Positions 1 to 10,519 of a stretch of 10,519 nt of DNA are shown in pieces; within the stretch, counting starts at the first letter, position 1; each line of letters opens with the position of its first letter. Source of the stretch: Clostridia bacterium (GTDB lineage: Bacteria > Bacillota > Clostridia > UMGS1883); contig JBJDXJ010000013.1 of the NCBI GenBank assembly GCA_051866635.1, forward strand, positions 1-10,519, in the 5' to 3' direction. The notes beneath the pieces were generated by a model that was given only the letters and a program-made list of their open reading frames with translations, ran no database searches and had not been told where the DNA came from. Made by a program: the position numbers and the translations under genes.

Positions 1-74
1 CAAAAATCTTATATCTAATTCAAAAAAACTTACACACTTTTCTTGACAAAGCCATCAAGAAAGGAAGACAGGCT

Positions 75-137
75 AATAAAAAGAATCCGTATTCTCCTTG
101 GCTCATTTGCCTTGAAGTAATACGGATTTTTCTTATT
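75..137. terminator. Stem-loop just downstream of the NTPase gene (terminator or structured RNA)
   Basis: AATCCGTATT (84-93) / AATACGGATT (119-128), extendable imperfectly to 75-93 / 119-137. T-rich tails on both strands. The 25-nt inner segment is unusually long. Confidence 0.55.
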
Positions 138-155
138 GCAGGTAAAACACTTTAA

Positions 156-2012
156 TCACTTTGCTTTGTCTAAACATTTTTGAATTTCTCGGATTGAAAT
201 ATTTATATAAGCCTTTACCATTTTATCTTCCTCTGCTTTTTGAATTATCTTTAACTCTTCAATAAGTTTTTGGAAGTTTTCTTTAGATTTTGCCATTTCT
301 TCGTCTGTCGAATATCCATTGTTAAAAATGTGAATATGACTGATTACATAATCCAGCTCTCTTTTAACAACATCATCTCCATCTACATATCTTCTGAGGT
401 ACAAGTCTAATAATTCATCATCGAAAGAATCAATAGGGGCACCACGAAACTCATGCATCGGTATGCTGTTGCCACTCCTTATATGCTTTATCAAATCTCT
501 TTTATTTACAAACAAACATTGTCTATCATTATTCTTAACAACTTTATTATATACGGATTTCATTTCAGGACTCATTTCATGTAATGTTTCATCAGTAATA
601 TATCTATGCCTTTCATCTTTAGTGATAGCACCATTTTTGAGCATAATTTCTCTGTTATCAAGTCCCTCTTCCATTTTCTTACAATCTATTTTGCACGGCA
701 AATCTACATTGTGAATCTTCATTCCTGTAACTTTTTCAAGCAAAGAAATCAATTCATCACATGTCAAATATCCATTATATGCTTTCTCAACTGCAACAGG
801 TAATCCATCAAAAATATCTTGATATGACAATGACCAAAAATCATATATGAGAAATTTCTGTTCGGGTGTTATTTCTTTAGAAACATAGATTTTACCAATT
901 TCAATTCTAATATCTTCTGGCTTCCACTCGCCCTTCACAATCCAATCTCTTATACTTGGTGTAATCAACTGTTCTTTATTATAATTAGAATATTTCTTTT
1001 GAAAAGAAATATCAGAGAATAAGTATCCATAATCGCTTTCTTTATAATTATCTGCTTTATACTCAAAGGTTATAGCTGTAAACAAATATAAAACTTTCTC
1101 TATATATTCTTCCGCAACACTATTAGCCCTCATTATATCATACACACGTTCAAAATTTATAACAGCTGATTTTAAACTTCTTATATTTTCATATTTGCTT
1201 TCAATAAATACTTTAGCTATTAAATCCTTATTATTGCCCAAAAAATTTTTATATTTCTCGCTCTTCGTGCTATATCCCGCTACTAAGCAATTAACCACTT
1301 CATAATGCTTTGGTGCAACTTGAACTGTTCTAAAAATTACTTTTTCTTTAAATTCAGCATATGAGAATTTTGTGTTGTCATTACTTTCTTCATCATTATC
1401 CTTGCCGTTTTTCTCTTTCTTAATTTTAGTTTCATCAGCAATTACTATTGTTTTAATTTTTCTGTTCTCTGAATACTCATTAATCGAACCTAAAAGTTCT
1501 ATCTCATCTAACTTTGACCTTTCAAAATCATCAAAAACAAGCACCAATGTCTTAGTAACTTTATTGCTTCCATCCCAACATTCAATCTTATTTTTAACTT
1601 CTACAAAATTATATACATCAACTGACAGCACAGCATTAATACCTGCGGCTACCTTAGAATATGTGCTGAATGCTGATGCTAATTGTGACACATTTTCTTT
1701 CGCCTTTGTTATTTTCGCCCTGCTCTTATCATCACATTTACTCGATTTTTGCAACCAAAACACATTTTCTTTCACTTTTTGGTTTAATTTTTCGATAGAG
1801 TCAACGCCGAAAAGTGATACTATTGCAACAGCATATCTTTCTTTTGCTCCGATTTTCTTTGCGATTATTTCTGCTTTCTCGTCCGAGTGTAATTCTTCTG
1901 CGATTTCTTTTACTAAGTAGCTTTTTCCGCAACCCCATTTTCCACTTACCAACAGAGCACCATTATCTTCTTTGCAACCAATATAACTATAAATCTCATC
2001 TTTAGCATTCAT
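156..2012 (-). CDS. KAP-family-like P-loop NTPase (618 aa) with an uncharacterised C-terminal region; candidate anti-phage cargo
   Basis: N-terminal Walker A (ALLVSGKWGCGKS) and Walker B with the KAP-type signature (LVLVFDDFER), later FKEKVI motif. AAGGAG RBS (2027-2022) lies 9 nt before the ATG. Visibly AT-richer than the surface protein gene. Confidence 0.8.
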   Translation of the reverse strand: MNAKDEIYSYIGCKEDNGALLVSGKWGCGKSYLVKEIAEELHSDEKAEIIAKKIGAKERYAVAIVSLFGVDSIEKLNQKVKENVFWLQKSSKCDDKSRAKITKAKENVSQLASAFSTYSKVAAGINAVLSVDVYNFVEVKNKIECWDGSNKVTKTLVLVFDDFERSKLDEIELLGSINEYSENRKIKTIVIADETKIKKEKNGKDNDEESNDNTKFSYAEFKEKVIFRTVQVAPKHYEVVNCLVAGYSTKSEKYKNFLGNNKDLIAKVFIESKYENIRSLKSAVINFERVYDIMRANSVAEEYIEKVLYLFTAITFEYKADNYKESDYGYLFSDISFQKKYSNYNKEQLITPSIRDWIVKGEWKPEDIRIEIGKIYVSKEITPEQKFLIYDFWSLSYQDIFDGLPVAVEKAYNGYLTCDELISLLEKVTGMKIHNVDLPCKIDCKKMEEGLDNREIMLKNGAITKDERHRYITDETLHEMSPEMKSVYNKVVKNNDRQCLFVNKRDLIKHIRSGNSIPMHEFRGAPIDSFDDELLDLYLRRYVDGDDVVKRELDYVISHIHIFNNGYSTDEEMAKSKENFQKLIEELKIIQKAEEDKMVKAYINISIREIQKCLDKAK

Positions 2013-2051
2013 ATTTTCATTCTCCTTAGTTTACAATTGTTTTCTTTTGTG

Positions 2052-2091
2052 ATTATAGCACTATTATACAATACATATTTTTAATCGTCAA
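2052..2091 (-). promoter_or_regulatory. sigma-A-type promoter of the NTPase gene
   Basis: Minus strand TTGACG (2091-2086), 17 bp, TATAAT (2068-2063). A second, extended -10 TGcTATAAT lies at 2060-2052. Confidence 0.75.
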
Positions 2092-2662
2092 CGATACTAA
2101 TCAATTTCTCCCAAGTATATTTAAACATCCTAACCTTATTCTGCTCCCATCTTTTAGCCTTAGAGAGCTGAACGCCCATCATCTTTGCAAACTCCATCTG
2201 TGTTATATGTAATTCTTTTCGCAACCTTTTAATATATGCCCCCTGTCCGTTATACAGAAATTTATTATAATCATCAAGCAGGTCAAACACATCAACATCC
2301 AAAATCTCAGCAATCTTGTCCATCATCTTACCTTCATAATAGTCACGGTTAGAATCCTCGTAACTTATGTAAGTGCTTCGCTCAATTCCGAGATAGTCAG
2401 CGACTTCTACTTGCAGTAAACCTTTCTTATACCTGTAGTATCTTAACTTGTCCGCAACAGAAGTAATCATATCCGCATTTGGAAACTTCAAAGTGAATTT
2501 CTGCACCTCAGATATCTTTCTCGGAGTAATAAATCCAAACGAGTGTATGTACATCGGTATAGCCACACATTTATTGCTTTTTTTTTTCTTCCGTATCAGC
2601 GAAACATTATCGTCAATTTTGATAATGTCGTCATAAAAGGGAGCAATTATTCCCTCTTTCAA
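2081..2662 (-). CDS. Double helix-turn-helix (XRE/Cro-like) DNA-binding protein; start uncertain
   Basis: Two HTH_3-like motifs: [32 protein letters not shown] and [31 protein letters not shown]. No clear SD before TTG 2662 or internal ATGs 2554/2470. Frame is open upstream to 2695. Confidence 0.8.
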
Positions 2663-3014
2663 CCCAAAAGAGCCGTAATGAGTGGGTCGCTTTTTCTATA
2701 CACCGTGCCACATAAGTTGCAAGGCGTGTATTTTTTTCGTAATCAAAACTGTCAACTCCTTTCATAAGCCCTATTGTCCCAATGGAAATTAAATCGTCAA
2801 TATCGTACGACTGGGAATACTTTTTTACAATATGTGCAACCAATCTCAAATTATGTTCAATTAAAGTATTCCGTGCCTCCTTATCACCCTGTTTCATTTT
2901 TTCAAGACATTCTCTCTCTTCCTTTTCGCTTAAAGGTTCAGGAAAGTTTCCGCTTGATACAACTCCCGACAAAAACAGGGACGTAAAGAAGTATTGTAAA
3001 AGCTCTAAAAACAC
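2631..3014 (-). CDS. sigK: 5' half of interrupted pro-sigma-K gene (spoIVCB-like); sigK homology 3014-~2692, then a 20-aa unrelated tail
   Basis: [10 protein letters not shown]...[24 protein letters not shown]...[19 protein letters not shown]...[12 protein letters not shown] is characteristic of SigK. The expected continuation NEILM is replaced by [10 protein letters not shown]...stop. GGAGGT RBS (3026-3021) lies 6 nt before the GTG start. Hydrophobic N-terminal pro-sequence present. Confidence 0.93.
2670..2715. other. Putative attachment junction; crossover near the AA at 2693-2692
   Basis: Minus strand TGT ATA GAA AA|A GCG. Intact sigK would read GAA AAY GAR (E-N-E), so the match ends after GAA AA. 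The exact crossover is ambiguous within the A5 run (2695-2691). Confidence 0.65.
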
Positions 3015-3067
3015 AAAAGCACCTCCAAAATATACTACAGTATATTTTAAAGGTGCCTCTTTTGTGT
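3011..3067 (-). other. Long hairpin overlapping the sigK promoter, SD and start codon (terminator-like)
   Basis: Minus-strand RNA: ACACAAAA GAG GCACCU UU AAAAUAUACU GU AGUAUAUUUU GG AGGUGC UUUUGUGU, pairing as 8+6+2(G-U)+~9 bp. Confidence 0.7.
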
Positions 3068-3073
3068 CTGTCC
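3039..3073 (-). promoter_or_regulatory. Putative sigma-E/SpoIIID-dependent sigK promoter
   Basis: AATATACT (3046-3039) resembles the sigma-E -10 (cATAcanT). GGACAGAC (3073-3066) resembles a SpoIIID box just upstream of the -35 region. This is the established arrangement for sigK promoters; assignment is by motif resemblance only. Confidence 0.5.
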
Positions 3074-3223
3074 CGGGTTAATATTATTTTACAATCAACA
3101 AAATCACAATTCCCGTTATCTATTGAAATTTCTCCCGTTATATCAGAATATGTATCAGGGCAAATAAGTGTAGCTGTGACGCTTTCCTAAGTTATTTAAT
3201 AAAGTACAGCAAAATAATGGTAA

Positions 3224-3260
3224 AGAAAATTGGTTGCCTCTGAATAGCAACCAATTTTCT
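3224..3260 (-). terminator. Intrinsic terminator of the surface protein gene (possibly bidirectional)
   Basis: Perfect 14-bp inverted repeat AGAAAATTGGTTGC (3224-3237) / GCAACCAATTTTCT (3247-3260) with a 9-nt loop, 27 bp after the stop codon; T-rich 3' side on both strands. Confidence 0.85.
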
Positions 3261-3287
3261 CGGTCAAGCGACTTGCTTTGTTCAAAT

Positions 3288-6200
3288 TTATTTATTTGCT
3301 TCAAGAAATCTTTTCAGAATTGTTGCAACCTCTGCTCTTGTTGCATTATCCTGAGGATTAATTGTGGTATTTGTTTTGCCATTCATCATGCCTGCACCTA
3401 CTGCATACTGAACAGATGTGATTGCATACTCGGATATTTTTTCTGCATCCGTGTAAGATAGGACATTTGTATCTTCACCAACTGACACATCATATCCTTT
3501 GTATCGTGCATATCTGTACATAATAGCCGCAATCTGTTCTCTTGTAATACTGTCATCCGGTGCAAACTCTGTTTCGGAACGACCGTTTACAATACCTTGG
3601 CTTGCGGCCCAGCGTACCGCTTCGATATAGTAACTGTTTGTATCAATATCATCAAAAGACATTGCATAATTTACCTGAGGCTTGCCTTCGGCTCTCCACA
3701 GAACTGTTACCAACATTGCACGTGTAACCAGCCCGTTGGGTTCAAAGGTCGTATCACTTGTCCCGCTAAATAATCCGTTTTCAGCTGAATATTTAACACT
3801 TCCATAGAACCAGTCATTTTCTGTTACATCGGTAAAGGGATTTTTCCATGCTTTATCATTCTCGGTTTCTTGTTTTGCCCACTTCGCATATAAGGTAATC
3901 GCCTTTGTCACATTTGTGTTGAAATCATAAGCTGTGACAAGATTTTTATCCGAATACCATCCGTCGAAAATGAAGCCCTCCTTTGTAGGATCTTTCGGCT
4001 TTGTTACAATATTATTTTTTTCTACTTCAACGCTGTTAATCACACTTCCGCCATTAGTGTCAAATGTGACGGTATATGTTGTCTTGGCAGTTCCACCGCC
4101 TCCGCCACCACCGCTACCTTCTGAACTTTTCTTTGGAATAATCTCATCCTTTGTTGCGTCACAAAGAGCACAAGTGTAGCGTTTTAAACCTTCTTCCTTT
4201 GTGGTAGCTTTCTTTATTACAATACCACTATCCCATTCATGGGGACATTCAATTGCAGCTATAGCATAGTGTGAAAAATGGTTTGTTTTGAAGCTTACAA
4301 ATCCATCCTCGTAATTTGCACGCACATATGATACCGAGCCATCATCGGCAACATAGCATACAATAATACGTTTTCCCTCCATATCTTCCGGCATTACGTA
4401 GGCAGCACGAACATCAACTGTACCATTAAGGGAATGAATTTCATCGCTTGTTTCTACACCATTTTCATCAACATGAGTAACAAAAAGATTCAACTGCAGT
4501 ATAACCGCATCATTAGCAATTGTGGCAAGTGCAGCTTGTTGTTTCTCATTTAAAGCATCCTTCTCTACCGCATCAATATGGATGCTGACCTTGTCATTGT
4601 CTTGTGCCTTATCAGATACTGTTTTCAAAACATCAGAGCTCATGGTTATTTCAGCTTCATCAGCCAAAACAGTAAGAGAATCCACCTCTGTGCTGTTGTC
4701 AAGAGCGTTTATAAGATTGGACGGCAAAGTTATATTATTTATACCCTCTGTTCCTCCTTTTGCGTCTATAACAATCTCTCCTGCAGAAGGGACATTATCT
4801 AAAATATTTTCAATGTCAGCCTCACCAATCTTAAACTCAACATTATTTCCGTCAATTTCGGTATCAATTTCGATACTTCCTCCGTTGATACCGATGAGTG
4901 CACCCGGTTTAATATTCAGAATTGCCTCGAAATACGTATCAGCTTTTACTGTTATATTGTCACTTGATATCAGACATGCACGAACCTTATATTCTCCTAT
5001 CTCTTCCGGAATGGTTTCCATCCATACACCGGTTGCATGTTGATATTCCACCTTAATAACAGCCGTTGCATCCTTAGGAACTATAGAAGCGTTAACATTG
5101 GAAACCTTTCCTTTTCTCTGCGTTAAATTTCCCAATTCTATTAAATAATCTTCAGCTTTTTTTACTGTCAAAATTCCGTTTTCGGTATTCACGTTATAAT
5201 TCTTAGCCGTAATTCCTGAAAGGAAAATATTATAAACTCCAACATTATCAAACTGATTATACTCGGTTGTGTATTCCGGAGCTCCCAAAATAACGGAACT
5301 ATCCTCTTCAAACACAAAGCCTGTTGCTTCAAATCCCTTAAATTCGGGTTTTTCGCCGTAGAATATTTCCGAATCATTTACCTTAACTTTAAGCAGTGCT
5401 TTATTTACGATTATCTTATAGCTTACAGTAGTTTCAAGGTATCTGTCTGTTGCAGCAGCTGTAGCTGTGATAGTAGTTTCACCTGCATTCAGAATTGTAG
5501 CTCTTCCGTTTGTATCTACGGTAGCAACTTCTGTGTTGCTGCTTGTATAGGTTATTTCTCCACCGTTTTCGCTGTCATTATATACCATGTTGTCAACATA
5601 CCTAAAGTCGCCGTATGTAACAGTTATATCGTTTTCAATAGTAAATTCAAGCTCTTGCTTTGTCATTTTGGGAATTATTTCTGTCTTTTGCTCTCCGCAA
5701 CGTTTACAGGTATAGATTACTGTTCCTTCCTCTGTCTCCGTCGGATTCTTTGTAATAACGCCGTCGTCCCAATCATGCCCTAATGCGTTAAAGGTTTTTG
5801 TTTCTTCATAGCCGCAAACAGAGCATTTACGGAAGGACTCTCCTTTTTCGGTACAAGTTGCCGCTGTTCTTACTGTCCACTCGCTCATGCTGTGTCCCTT
5901 TGCGGGAATCTCACGTATGTCGGTTACAGCGTCACATCTTGTACAATGACGTGATTCAGTTCCTGCTTCTGTACAGGTTGCAGCTTTATCTACTGTCCAA
6001 TCATCTTCAAAATCGTGTCCTGTTGCAGGAATGATTTTTGTTTCTTCGTATCCGCAAACAGAGCATTTACGGAAAGACTCTCCGTCATCTGTACAGGTCG
6101 CATCTTCTCTTACTGTCCATTCGCCCATACTGTGTCCCTTTGCGGGAATCTCACGTATGTCGGTTGCAGCGTCACATCTTGTGCAGTGACGTGATTCAGT

Positions 6201-9200
6201 TCCTGCTTCTGTACAGGTTGCAGCTTTATCTATTGTCCAATCATCTTCAAAATCGTGTCCTGTTGCAGGAATGATTTCTGTTTCTTCATAGCCACAGACA
6301 GAACATTTACGGAAGGACTCTCCGTCATCTGTACAGGTCGCATCTTCTCTTACTGTCCATTCGCCCATACTGTGTCCCTTTGCGGGAATAACCTCTGTTC
6401 TTGTTTCGGCACAGCCTTCATCAGTACAGGTATATACCTTTTCTCCGTCTGTGGTACAGGTCGCCTCAACCGTTACTGTTCCGCTATCCCAGTTATGTTT
6501 TGTAATACTGTCTACAAGCTTGATCTCTGTAGGAATTTCAGTTGTACTTCCGTTTCCTGTGATTGTAAACATATCGGTAAGCATATATTTTATTCCATCC
6601 TCAGTATCTATGCCTTCGCCGAATGTAATTTCGAAAATACCGGAAAGTACATCGCCCGGTTTAAATTTATCTGCTTGGAGAACATATCCCTCCTCAGCAG
6701 TACCGACTATAGTACCTCCCAAACTTTCCTCGGGATCATACTGTAAATCCGTTACAGAATATTCTTTACAGAATTTTCCGCCAAGAATATTCAAGGCTAC
6801 TTTGTACAAGTTTTTGTTTGAAACATTCTGCAATCTGAACAAAACTCTGTAGGGTGTTCCAGTTACTGCCGTTTTTTCCGCCTCGATAGTCAGCTTCATA
6901 GCACTTCCGCAAAGGACACTTATCGCTTCCTTTGTTTTAAATGGCACATTAATGTTTTCAGAAATTCCGCCGCCTGTTCTTATGCCGCTGACCAATCCGC
7001 TTATATAATACTCTCCTTCTGAATCTCCACATATATACCAGTGATGCTCTGCTGTTCCTTGAGGCAAAATATTTCCGAGAGACACCTCATCAGACTGCGG
7101 AACATCTATCATTTCTGCCAAAGACAAACCCTCAGGCAAATTAAGTTTTGCCTGACACGACTCAATCGTTTCCACCGCAGAAACATTTGCAGCCACAAGT
7201 TGCACGTCAAACATTTCCTTAAGCCATGTAACATTTGAGTGAATAATAAGATAAATATCCTTTGAAACAGGCATAATTATCTTGTCATCAACCGGCGGTG
7301 TATAAATCAAAATCTCATCATCGGTGCAAATATAATTAATTGTTATTTCTTCCTCAGGTGAGAAACGTAAAACAGCAGTGCAGTTATAAACATTCTTGTT
7401 TCCGACAGCTTCGGGGTCAATACCTGCGTTTACAATGTCATCGTAGGTCATTTCCGAAACCTCTGTCTTTATGTCAAGAATTGAACCGTTTTCCAAATAA
7501 GAAGTAAACTCTGCATCATCGTCTGTTTTCTCTATTGTAAACGTACGCATATTGTAGTCTTTTGCAATAATATTAACAGTGTATATGCCGTTATCCAGTT
7601 TGAATTCTGCATCTCCCTTTGAATCGGTTGTGGCTTTTTTGCTCACTGTTCCGTCATTGTTCGATATAAAAATCTGTGCATTCGGTATTGGTTGCAGTGT
7701 TTGCGTGTCAGCAACTTTAAAGCGAGTGTTGCCTTCCTGCAAAACAGGCTCAACATGCACTACGGCAAATCCGTAGTCATAGTGCCATGACCATAAATAA
7801 GGGGTGGTAAGTGAAATTTCAAACTCAGAACCATCTACATAAAAGCTGTCTTCAAAAAGCAAATTGTTAAACTCATCAGTTCCATATTCTTTTTTTGCAC
7901 CTGTTCCATCTGTTATTGTAACTGTTGCGTTTAAACGATCATAAATGTGAGACAGAGGTGACATAGTTACCCATAAGCCTTTTACAGAACTTCCGGTATA
8001 CGCATAGCGAACAGTTTCTGTAGTACTTGAACGATACGGATGGGAGCTTTCAATCAACTTTCCGTCATATTCAATAGTTTCCGGAATGTCAACATCATCC
8101 TCATTTACCAAAGTAAATGTTATATCATTTGCCTTCTCAATGGTAAATTTATCAGCATCTTTTCTAAAGCCCACCACGCTTCCGTCTAAGCACAAATATG
8201 CCCTTCCGGAATATAAAGGGGAATGTCCATAGTCATACCGATACATAAGATACACATTTTCACCCTCATATTCGGGCGAAATAACAATTATTGAATTGAA
8301 TACACTTCCTATCAAGTCTTCGGCTATTAGTTCTCCGTTCTCCGAAATAATATAAAAATCACAATAGTTATGATCCGGATCTATCATATTAATATTAAAA
8401 GCACAGCCGACCTTCAAAGTAAAATCTATTCCGGAAATGTCTGAATCCAACAAAACCTCATCTGCCTGTGCTTCATCGGTTGTTGTACCCTTTTTCGAAT
8501 AATAATAGTTTCCTTCTAAAATATTTGTGTAATAACTGTTTCCGAGCATATCGTCAGCCATACCGCCTCTTATACTTAAACGGAGCTTTGTACTTACCGG
8601 TGCGTCGGATTTTTCAACGCCTATAATAAAGGGAATTTCCTTTTTTGTTTCGCTGAAATCATCCTTTGTTGTCAAGCCTGTTACATAGTAGGTTTTGCCG
8701 TTAACTAAAAGCTCGCAGTTGGTAGAATAGTTTTCAACAACTGCATCATCAGGCAGTGTTACACTACCTGAAATCGCGTATCCTGTGTTTACACTGAAAT
8801 TCAGGTCAGTCAAATCCTCTTCCGGGTTAACCGTAAAGGTTTCTTCGGAATCGGCATAATATATTCCGGGTAAAATATTTGACGAAGCCCCCATTTCACC
8901 TTCATCAAATATAATATACGGAGTATATTCTTTTTCCGTTATTCCGTAGGGCATTACAGCCTCGTACTCAAAAGTTTCAGGATTTACATACCCTCTCGTC
9001 CAATAAGTTCCGAAATATATTGTAATCGGTTCATTTCCCAACGTTTTAAGGTCATCTGCCGTGATTTTACCGGACACTGTTTTGCCCGTGGGAATAAGAA
9101 TTTCCATATCGGGAAGTTTTGTAATACTTAAATAATCATCTGCATAACGATCAGGCTTCATACCCTCTTCGGTTAATACAAACTGCAAATTTGAAGATGT

Positions 9201-10519
9201 ATCGGTATAAAGATTTGTCTGTGCTCCTGACAAGTTTCTGAGCATTACCCTTATGCTTACAGCTGTTTCTTCTGCGGAAAAGTTAAATTCAAATGGATAA
9301 TCTTTAATCTCGCTTATCTCAAATTCTTGTTTCAGATATTCGTTTGTATCTTGTCCGTCTATCCAAATATCTGCAATCAAACTGCCGCCTGTCAAATATG
9401 CATCCTCCGGGAAAGATAATGTTCCCTTTGCAACACGTTCGCCTTTCGGTTCTTCTGGCTCATCTGTGTAATTAAAATGGATTTCTGCATTTGTCAGGCA
9501 ACTGTTTCCACTTTCAATAACAATACTGTTCCACTTTTCTTCTGTGCCTGTATAATACACATCAGTTAAACTGCTGCAGCCTTCAAACGTGCTATCCCCT
9601 ATGCTTGTTACGCTGTCCGGAATTGTTATGCTTGATAAACTGCGGCAATATCCAAACGTATAACGTCCTATGCTTGTTACGCCATCCGGAATTGTTATGC
9701 TTGCTAAGCTACTGCAACTTGAAAACGCACTACCCCCTATGCTTGTTACACTGTCCGGGATTGTTATGCTTTCTAAACTGCTGCACCTATAAAACGCATG
9801 ACTCTCTATGCTTGTTACACTGTCCGGGATTTCATACTCAGTCTGTGTAATTCCTGCCGGATAACGAATAAGTTTTGTTTTATCTTTGTTAAACAAAACT
9901 CCTTCAAAACTTGCATAATTAAGGTTTTCTTCGCTTACGGTTATGCTTTCTAAGCTGCTGCAACCATTAAACGCACAATCACCTATGCTTGTTACGCTGT
10001 CCGGGATTGTTATGCTTTCTAAGCTACTGCAAATTGCAAACGCATAACACCCTATTCTTGTTACACTATCCGGGATTGTTATGCTTGCTAAGCTACTGCA
10101 ACTTAAAAACGCACTATCCCCTATGCTTGTTACGCTGTCTGGGATTGTTATGCTTGACAAACTGCTGCAATCATCAAACGCACCTTCCCATATGCCTGTT
10201 ACACCATCCGGGATTGTTATGCTTGCTAAGCTGCTGCAACCTGAAAACGCATAACTCCCTATTCTTGTTACACTATCCGGGATTGTTATGCTTTCTAAAC
10301 TGCTGCACCTATAAAACGCATGACTCTCTATGCTTGTTACACTGTCCGGGATTGTTATGCTTGACAAACTGCTGCAATGGGCAAGCGTCAAATTTCCTAT
10401 GCTTGTTACGCTGTCCGGGATTGTTATGCTTGCTAAGCTGCTGCAACCATAAAACGCACTATCCCCTATGCTTGTTACGCTGTCCGGGATTGTTATGCTT
10501 GCTAAGCTGCTGCAACCAT
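3288..10519 (-). CDS. Large SLH-anchored cell-surface protein with BspA-type LRRs (5'-truncated, >2400 aa)
   Basis: Frame stays open from the track's TTG (10391) to the window edge ([27 protein letters not shown]...). Approximate N-to-C order: LRR_5 array (10519-9480), divergent beta-rich repeats (9445-8100), CUB-like (8060-7760), carboxypeptidase-regulatory-like (7725-7530), unknown region, His/Cys repeats (6500-5667), Big_2 Ig-like (5560-5410), MBG-like (5405-5160), Gly/Ser linker, InlB B-repeat/Flg_new (4080-3878), three SLH domains with TRAM/TREQ/TRAE motifs (3845-3300). Confidence 0.92.
5667..6500 (-). repeat. Seven ~40-aa His/Cys repeats, including a near-identical 240-bp tandem duplication (~2.5 copies, ~5798-6389)
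   Basis: Unit H-x(2-5)-W...ATCT..G...CxxC...IPAxG. Sequence at 5881, 6121 and 6361 aligns with a 240-bp period. Confidence 0.93.
9560..10519 (-). repeat. 69-bp (23-aa) BspA/LRR_5 tandem repeats, 12 complete variable cores in the window
   Basis: Unit [23 protein letters not shown] with a strongly conserved DNA scaffold (+ strand tatgcttgttac.ctgtccgggattgttatgctt). Interrupted once by an insert ([29 protein letters not shown], ~9940-9835). Confidence 0.95.

Follow-up and report, generated by a model that had tools for sequence, protein, structure and literature searches.

Introduction

The closest described counterparts of the locus studied here are the skin (sigK-intervening) elements of Bacillus subtilis and Clostridioides difficile, which split the sporulation gene sigK. 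The B. subtilis skin is a 48-kb defective prophage whose core lies, according to the supplement of PMC6957869, at the Asn codon of the R-C-I-E-N-E motif, and whose excision is attributed in the accessible accounts to a large serine recombinase (LSR), SpoIVCA, and a small directionality factor under sigma-E, Skr. In C. difficile, the available text of PMC5025042 places the LSR gene CD1231 immediately upstream of the sigK 3' half, behind a sigma-A promoter with inverted repeats, and assigns the gating of excision to a small sigma-E/SpoIIID gene, CD1234. Here, we analyzed a 10,519-nucleotide stretch of a Clostridia bacterium (contig JBJDXJ010000013.1, assembly GCA_051866635.1; the whole stretch is hereafter called the window), in which sigK is broken at the B. 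subtilis site and followed by a helix-turn-helix (HTH) gene. We are fairly confident that the window holds the left attachment site (attL) end of a small, mobile, non-phage LSR element inserted in sigK, and that the attachment site of the element itself (attP) lies inside its recombinase gene.

In the literature accessible to us, both skins at this site with variable content and attachment (att) sites inside integrase genes are already known. The accessible part of Galperin et al. (2022, bioRxiv 10.1101/2022.02.25.481979) describes 15 skins of 2.6-48 kb that split sigK in Clostridia and Negativicutes, vary in content and usually carry the LSR gene just upstream of the 3' half. As excerpted from Ambroset et al. 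(2016, PMC4701971), the rumA-targeting integrative and conjugative elements (ICEs) of streptococci have their att site inside a serine integrase gene, and their excised and integrated forms differ in the C-terminus, for which a functional difference was proposed. The attP of the Myxococcus phage Mx8 likewise lies inside its integrase gene, and integration turns a 112-residue tail into one of 13 residues, with lower activity (excerpts of PMC4701971 and PMC6070905); the SSV-family archaeal integrases are described as having attP in the same position.

The elements described here share their attB position with the B. subtilis skin, the placement of the LSR gene and its type of promoter with the C. 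difficile skin, and, as predicted below, LSR-type excision with a small accessory gene with both. In contrast to the B. subtilis skin, they measure 6.7-10.4 kb, have unrelated att arms and look recently mobile; the accessible accounts of that skin mention no split recombinase or HTH tail, and the term 'helix-turn-helix' is absent from the main text of PMC5025042. Whereas the skins of Galperin et al. are said to share only the recombinase, an HTH tail and a gene of ~60 codons are common to the whole family here. The rumA ICEs differ in that their target is a dispensable rRNA methyltransferase gene, and the part of PMC4701971 available describes neither a DNA-binding domain in the swapped tail nor a developmental gene; Mx8 and the SSV family, as far as their descriptions go, use tyrosine recombinases and do not target a developmental host gene that excision would rebuild. 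What is common to Mx8, the rumA ICEs and the present family is a crossover inside the recombinase open reading frame (ORF) that changes the C-terminus, seen here as in-frame fusions in 10 of the 12 complete elements and in natural fusions. In a search mainly outside subscription papers, we found no report of an LSR that gains a tandem-HTH tail on excision from sigK; the supplements of Galperin et al. (Table S7, Fig. S4) may include members.

Results

sigK is broken at the same codon in the window and its relatives

The ORF at 2631-3014 on the minus strand of the window has SigK as its best NCBIfam match (TIGR02846, profile positions 13-111 of 227), with SigE scoring lower, and Sigma70_r2 as its sole Pfam match. 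The sigK 5' half proper occupies 2692..3014 (minus strand) and aligns with residues 17-112 of the B. subtilis sigma-K chain 8vjl_B as well as with intact relatives, to which it is up to 90% identical; its start would be a pro-sequence-like stretch. SigK homology stops at ARCIE, after which an unrelated tail of 20 residues follows, and the crossover falls at 2693-2692, with the break at C-I-E|AA. The AA pair (2692..2693), with which the Asn codon of intact sigK begins, is the central dinucleotide of attL, and the adjoining 2666..2691 (minus strand) is the element-side arm (P'), identified by arm complementarity and conserved columns and including a GGCTC motif that mirrors the right-end arm. 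In a protein comparison limited to 223 aa, 44 of the 48 database proteins nearest to the window SigK-N (P0002-P0049) continued through the break with ENE[IV]LM, and four stopped at the same residue. Many SigK proteins of other lineages (uncounted, within P0053-P0119) also end at this codon with related tails, and because of these, split sigK at this site appears to be common in public metagenomes.

We surveyed relatives of the HTH gene by scanning GTDB genomes with a query made of the window HTH aligned with 49 of its 113 homologues. The best 80 of 115 confirmed stretches were retained with flanks of 10 kb, a span that captures complete elements of 6.7-10.4 kb and misses larger ones. Their hosts are mostly Clostridia, plus Negativicutes and one Erysipelotrichia; cultured commensals are among them, for example Ructibacterium gallinarum DSM 107454 (L015) and Clostridium fessum (L069). 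At 75 of the 80 loci the HTH gene lies directly behind a sigK 5' half that ends at the same codon; at four it lies behind the right-end arm, as in an attP-type junction, with the LSR body visible in three of them (L018, L034 and L067); and at one (L048, 2275-3216) it abuts the sigK 3' half in an inverted insertion. For junction scoring we used 77 loci and the window, 78 in total, and three sigK-N loci outside the pattern were read by eye. The central dinucleotide was AA in 77 of the 78 junctions and TT in the inverted L048; where both ends can be compared, as in L009, AA are the only bases common to attL and attR.

Both ends were seen in 12 elements, in which the LSR gene ends at attR and sigK can be rebuilt. 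When the host arms were joined at AA, an intact sigK resulted in all 11 of the relatives processed, the locus of L002 being cut by its end. The LSR of L002 carries the Pfam domains Resolvase and Recombinase and a Zn ribbon. L002 is also a close relative of the window (junction DNA 84% identical, HTH 92%), and the two form a clade with L001 (SH-aLRT, an approximate likelihood-ratio support, 98) in a quick tree of 77 of the 78 rows. These results bear out part of the original prediction, which from the window alone had proposed a developmentally excised element in a probably clostridial host: SigK homology ends after ARCIE and gives way to HTH and NTPase genes, the B. subtilis break that it placed in the same ENE region agrees with PMC6957869 as far as its supplement goes, the nearest loci are 'Clostridia bacterium' metagenome-assembled genomes (MAGs), and comparisons recovered the LSR and the sigK 3' half in relatives and a reading through the break in intact ones; developmental excision would be a further, predicted property.

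Some loci are more complex. sigK is broken a second time, at an H[IV][IV]KK|Y motif, in L019 (5835-6008, 9825-9965), L077 (522-722, 9783), L020 (~1980) and L054 (~1245); a distant LSR lies beside the second break in L020 and L077, and since sigK is then in three pieces, two excisions would be needed. Tandem elements are stacked in one sigK in L017/L018 (one contig) and in L067, with an attP carrying an LSR-HTH fusion as the internal junction. The HTH tail also follows non-sigK sequence in P0238 (an ABC permease), P0251 and P0252, suggesting secondary targets for one subfamily.

The HTH frame behind sigK reads as the 3' part of the recombinase gene

Beyond the crossover, the minus strand of the window (2081..2691) encodes a linker, a small beta domain and two XRE-type HTH domains, of which the called double XRE-HTH ORF (Pfam) covers 2081-2662. 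The frame is open for 202 codons from the crossover and is blocked just upstream by a host-side TAG; the structure model of the HTH protein has a predicted local distance difference test (pLDDT) score of 86.8. Between the crossover and the first HTH, 74 of the 78 scored junctions keep this same frame open, compared with one and two for the other frames, and a start codon with a Shine-Dalgarno (SD) match of at least 5 bases precedes the HTH in only two. At 42 of the 73 sigK-N junctions, including that of the window, the HTH frame is preceded by a host stop no more than two codons away. At the opposite end, the integrated LSR frame of the 12 complete elements is closed by a host-supplied TGA in eight, gains a tail of 6-22 residues in three and stops two codons early in L035. 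Circularization in silico produced an in-frame LSR-HTH fusion of 760-795 aa, counted from the catalytic motif, in 10 of the 12.

The frame is also kept where lengths differ. Linker lengths that are multiples of three form eight distinct classes on the HTH side and seven on the LSR side. In the window clade the HTH side carries a one-base shift, and the window has the shifted frame of L002; in L002 alone, the LSR side is shifted oppositely, giving a compensating pair of 115 + 236 nt in which the ancestral frame is recognizable but contains a stop. A distance of 10.4 kb separates the two shifts of L002, which compensate each other only once the circle is formed. Across 12 chosen pairs, the ratio of nonsynonymous to synonymous substitution (dN/dS) was 0.02-0.27, and between the window and L002 it was 0.16 and 0.06, indicating that the orphan HTH frame, along with the segment ahead of the HTH, is under purifying selection.

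Fused forms also occur in nature. Full-length Resolvase-Recombinase-Zn-HTH proteins make up 9 of the 15 long matches, with P0336 in addition, and the fused DNA is contiguous in L018, L034 and L067. An AlphaFold model of one natural fusion, P0234 (mean pLDDT 74, predicted template modelling score 0.44), has two folded regions connected through residues 549-589, a linker of low confidence, and is uninformative on contact between them. Foldseek with the HTH model returned generic XRE domains only, none at E 0.001 or better, and an Atlas search with the small beta domain gave no match.

Programmed frameshifting that would carry translation from sigK into the HTH was considered and rejected, because the offset of the HTH to sigK differs between clades. 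The frame tracking and L048, in which the HTH is removed from the sigK promoter together with the P' arm, likewise disfavor the HTH gene as independent cargo or as a product of read-through from sigK. The original prediction had counted it as distinctive cargo; judged from its frame, the HTH ORF is instead the 3' portion of the element's recombinase gene, cut off from the rest. We consider it very likely, from the sequence comparisons, that sigK and the recombinase gene are split reciprocally and that selection maintains the fused frame.

Att arms, the LSR promoter and a small conserved gene

In the 12 complete elements, complementarity between the two attP arms extends to 12-20 of 30 positions, whereas that of attB reaches 7-12 of 30. 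The element arms are thus imperfect inverted repeats, as expected for a serine-integrase attP. The LSR gene is preceded by a sigma-A-like promoter, recognized by eye, and then by a motif resembling an att arm (11-12 of 14 in 6 of the 12 elements); in L012, L018 and L020, a 9-10 bp palindrome follows the promoter.

All 12 complete elements, and 43 of the 45 loci with at least 4 kb, contain a small gene of 55-75 codons, which has no Pfam family and only hypothetical proteins as Atlas look-alikes. In the window, its last eight codons and stop are visible at 50..76 on the plus strand, where an in-frame stop at 44-46 cuts the gene. A motif, RKACAR-N9-10-MATA, lies upstream of the small gene in 26 of 38 cases, or 12 of 18 when near-copies are counted once, and of only 1 of the 384 other ORFs of the elements. 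This motif is similar to the B. subtilis SpoIIID consensus. It also resembles the -35/-10 description of sigma-E promoters in the available text of PMC3789822 and the SpoIIID box given in PMC5025042, as far as that source was covered. On these grounds, the ~60-aa protein is a candidate directionality factor behind a mother-cell-type promoter.

Cargo and mobility

The gene next to the HTH frame in the window (156..2012, minus strand; GC 0.31) encodes a 618-aa P-loop NTPase of the KAP family (Pfam KAP_NTPase). It matches PADLOC PDC-S49 at E 8e-45 over residues 10-346 only, is similar in size to that ~620-aa profile and shares 48% full-length identity with the L001 gene that occupies this slot; it is interchangeable cargo, probably anti-phage. 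A sigma-A-like promoter for this gene at 2063..2091 (minus strand) is the best of 16 consensus matches, agreeing at 11 of 12 positions; its function is presumptive, because the total number of matches is at chance level. Across 63 loci, the ORFs that come first behind the HTH, counting those of 150 aa or more, represent 34 families, and 13 of 32 hand-picked cargo proteins match PADLOC at 1e-5, some of them partially, the matches being PDC-S49, AbiGii, PDC-S56, RmrT/RmrA, type II restriction-modification, SIR2, Fic and PDC-S01. The slot after the HTH thus appears, from these comparisons, to hold variable and often defence-like cargo. That the cargo differs from that of the characterized skins, as the original prediction noted, is ordinary: the 15 skins share only the recombinase, according to the part of Galperin et al. 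available.

A replication gene, either a P4-type primase or a rolling-circle initiator, is present in 11 of the 12 complete elements and is fragmented in L018. Among the 97 ORFs of at least 70 aa in these elements, no capsid, portal or terminase matched PHROG at 1e-8, the single 'major tail' match fell on the S-layer homology (SLH) stretch of an SLH protein, and no resistance family was matched; relaxases, which alongside an element's own integrase would be expected of an integrative mobilizable element, are present in the incomplete loci L025 and L075. Among 69 loci, 23 pairs have near-identical HTH DNA (proportion of synonymous differences, pS, <0.15) across hosts whose sigK is saturated, for example L064/L065 with pS 0.0 for the HTH versus 0.81 for sigK, a comparison that uses short windows and is subject to MAG binning. 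Near-identical HTH DNA despite saturated sigK indicates recent transfer. The family looks horizontally mobile, non-phage and recently mobile rather than domesticated. Inside one element, L037, two genes of the YkwD family (CAP, spore-associated) are found at 10228-12007.

Discussion

We propose that the LSR would insert the element at the AA of the sigK Asn codon. In the integrated state sigK would be split, the LSR (about 560-600 aa) would end at attR while keeping its catalytic, recombinase and zinc/coiled-coil domains, and the two-HTH tail, lacking its own start, would be left isolated behind the sigK 5' half. In the excised state sigK would be whole, and the circle would encode an LSR-linker-HTH-HTH protein of 760-795 aa. 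Because attP lies inside the recombinase gene, one recombination event would toggle two genes. The short LSR would be made constitutively and the ~60-aa protein from its sigma-E/SpoIIID-type promoter; that this protein acts on the short LSR as a directionality factor and so triggers excision in the mother cell, as with CD1231/CD1234, seems to us somewhat likely. The HTH tail could bind the att-like or palindromic operator at the LSR's own promoter, whereby the long form would turn off production of the recombinase once excision has occurred and would adjust integration when the element enters a new host. That the tail serves as a sensor of the circular state, most likely through this operator, is a tentative proposal that we rate slightly below even; the main alternative is that the tail would aid integration directly. 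To the complete scheme, in which excision completes sigK while the recombinase gains a tandem-HTH tail setting directionality or shut-off, the element serves as a defence hotspot, and the host must keep it excisable to sporulate, we assign a probability of about 0.5.

If the two-gene switch is real, a widespread Bacillota family uses recombination to switch two genes at once, with a circle that senses its own state. How serine integrases control direction and how a rebuilt sigK is guarded from re-interruption are open questions, for which the answers so far have been small factors encoded separately; here, the state of the DNA would specify which member of a natural long/short pair of a single LSR is made, so that the question can be tested directly with two proteins and four att sites. 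The annotated LSRs of the family would then be only one of two forms, which matters for the genome-mining of integrases. The data also suggest that, in MAGs of gut Clostridia, what is called a 'sigK pseudogene' is in many cases a split gene under an element that carries defence genes and is actively spreading.

Several observations weigh against the two-gene switch. The window itself contains no sigK 3' half, recombinase body or attR, its small gene is incomplete at the window edge, and the surveyed loci are related to one another, so that their counts are not independent. The fusion is broken in 2 of the 12 complete elements, by a stop two codons before the crossover in L035 and a frameshift in L042; the HTH frame is closed in L016 (which has a stop), L043 and L066 too; and the fused genes in tandem arrays look damaged, the LSR being frameshifted in L018 and without its coiled-coil part in L067. 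Among 72,556 plasmid and 50,697 phage records, LSR relatives occurred and no full fusion, none of the relatives covering 80% of the fusion; the best plasmid match, Ruminococcus albus pRUMAL01, had no annotated sigK or HTH tail within the 29.6 kb viewed. The att-like operator motif is at background in the other 6 of the 12 elements, and the motif upstream of the small gene was defined on the same sequences on which it was counted, with L002 fitting a relaxed pattern only. Alternatively, the element could be an ordinary skin whose HTH is a separate regulator: read-through from the mother-cell sigK promoter would transcribe it, it would be translated independently, and its join to the LSR would be a relic. 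The position of the HTH right behind sigK-N at 75 of 80 loci fits such a regulator, as do fused SigK-N::HTH ORFs (P0172), an HTH domain that folds alone in the model and the conserved HTH of L035 despite the stop before the join; moreover, separate translation is possible at 26 of the 73 sigK-N junctions, including L001 and L002, because a host-side start is in frame. It is nonetheless improbable in view of the host stops at 42 junctions, the window's among them, the absence of a conserved start or SD sequence, the change of HTH offset to sigK in the window clade while the offset to the LSR was kept, and the parting of the HTH from the sigK promoter in the inverted L048.

The fusion might instead be real and serve horizontal spread only, with excision unlinked to sporulation or with many hosts made asporogenous by the sigK knockout. 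This would be compatible with the split-recombinase anatomy and would differ from the two-gene switch in timing only. Recent transfer between distant hosts speaks for it, as do the replication genes of 11 of the 12 complete elements and the intact sigK of close relatives; the clean frames that the split sigK halves rebuild and the mother-cell-type motif upstream of a small core gene speak against it, and we consider it unlikely. There is, finally, a small chance that the element in this genome is a dead remnant, or the contig misassembled, with sigK a pseudogene: the window does not reach the right end, its small gene breaks off at 44-50, and the exact SigK-N protein is known from one contig only. 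However, the HTH frame is intact and kept by purifying selection, the KAP gene is full length, the junction agrees with independent genomes (84% DNA identity to L002), and L001 also has a partial stem-loop duplicate, there ahead of a complete small gene.

Other features of the window

A backbone stem-loop with 19-nt arms, 89% complementary, lies at 75..137 and is probably a terminator between convergent genes. Positions 50-137 of the window are 92% identical to 12457-12544 of L002, and 50-134 correspond to 7376-7460 of L001, while bases 1-49 match neither locus. In L001, the stem-loop is doubled around the cargo block (4957-5010 and 7376-7460), hinting at a cassette-like gain of cargo. An 8-bp hairpin was predicted inside the orphan frame of the window, at about 2636-2660 (minus strand), and in L002, and was not predicted in three other folded loci; it could damp read-through from the sigK promoter. 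The only Rfam match within positions 1-3400 was at chance level. On the host side, a 20-bp palindrome covers the ribosome-binding site of sigK (3016..3059, minus strand), and similar ones lie upstream of sigK in L001 and L002. The host neighbor directly upstream of sigK (3288-10519, minus strand) encodes a surface protein of >2400 aa that combines BspA leucine-rich repeats with repeats rich in Cys/His and with three SLH domains; the sequence at this position is a different one in L001 and L002.

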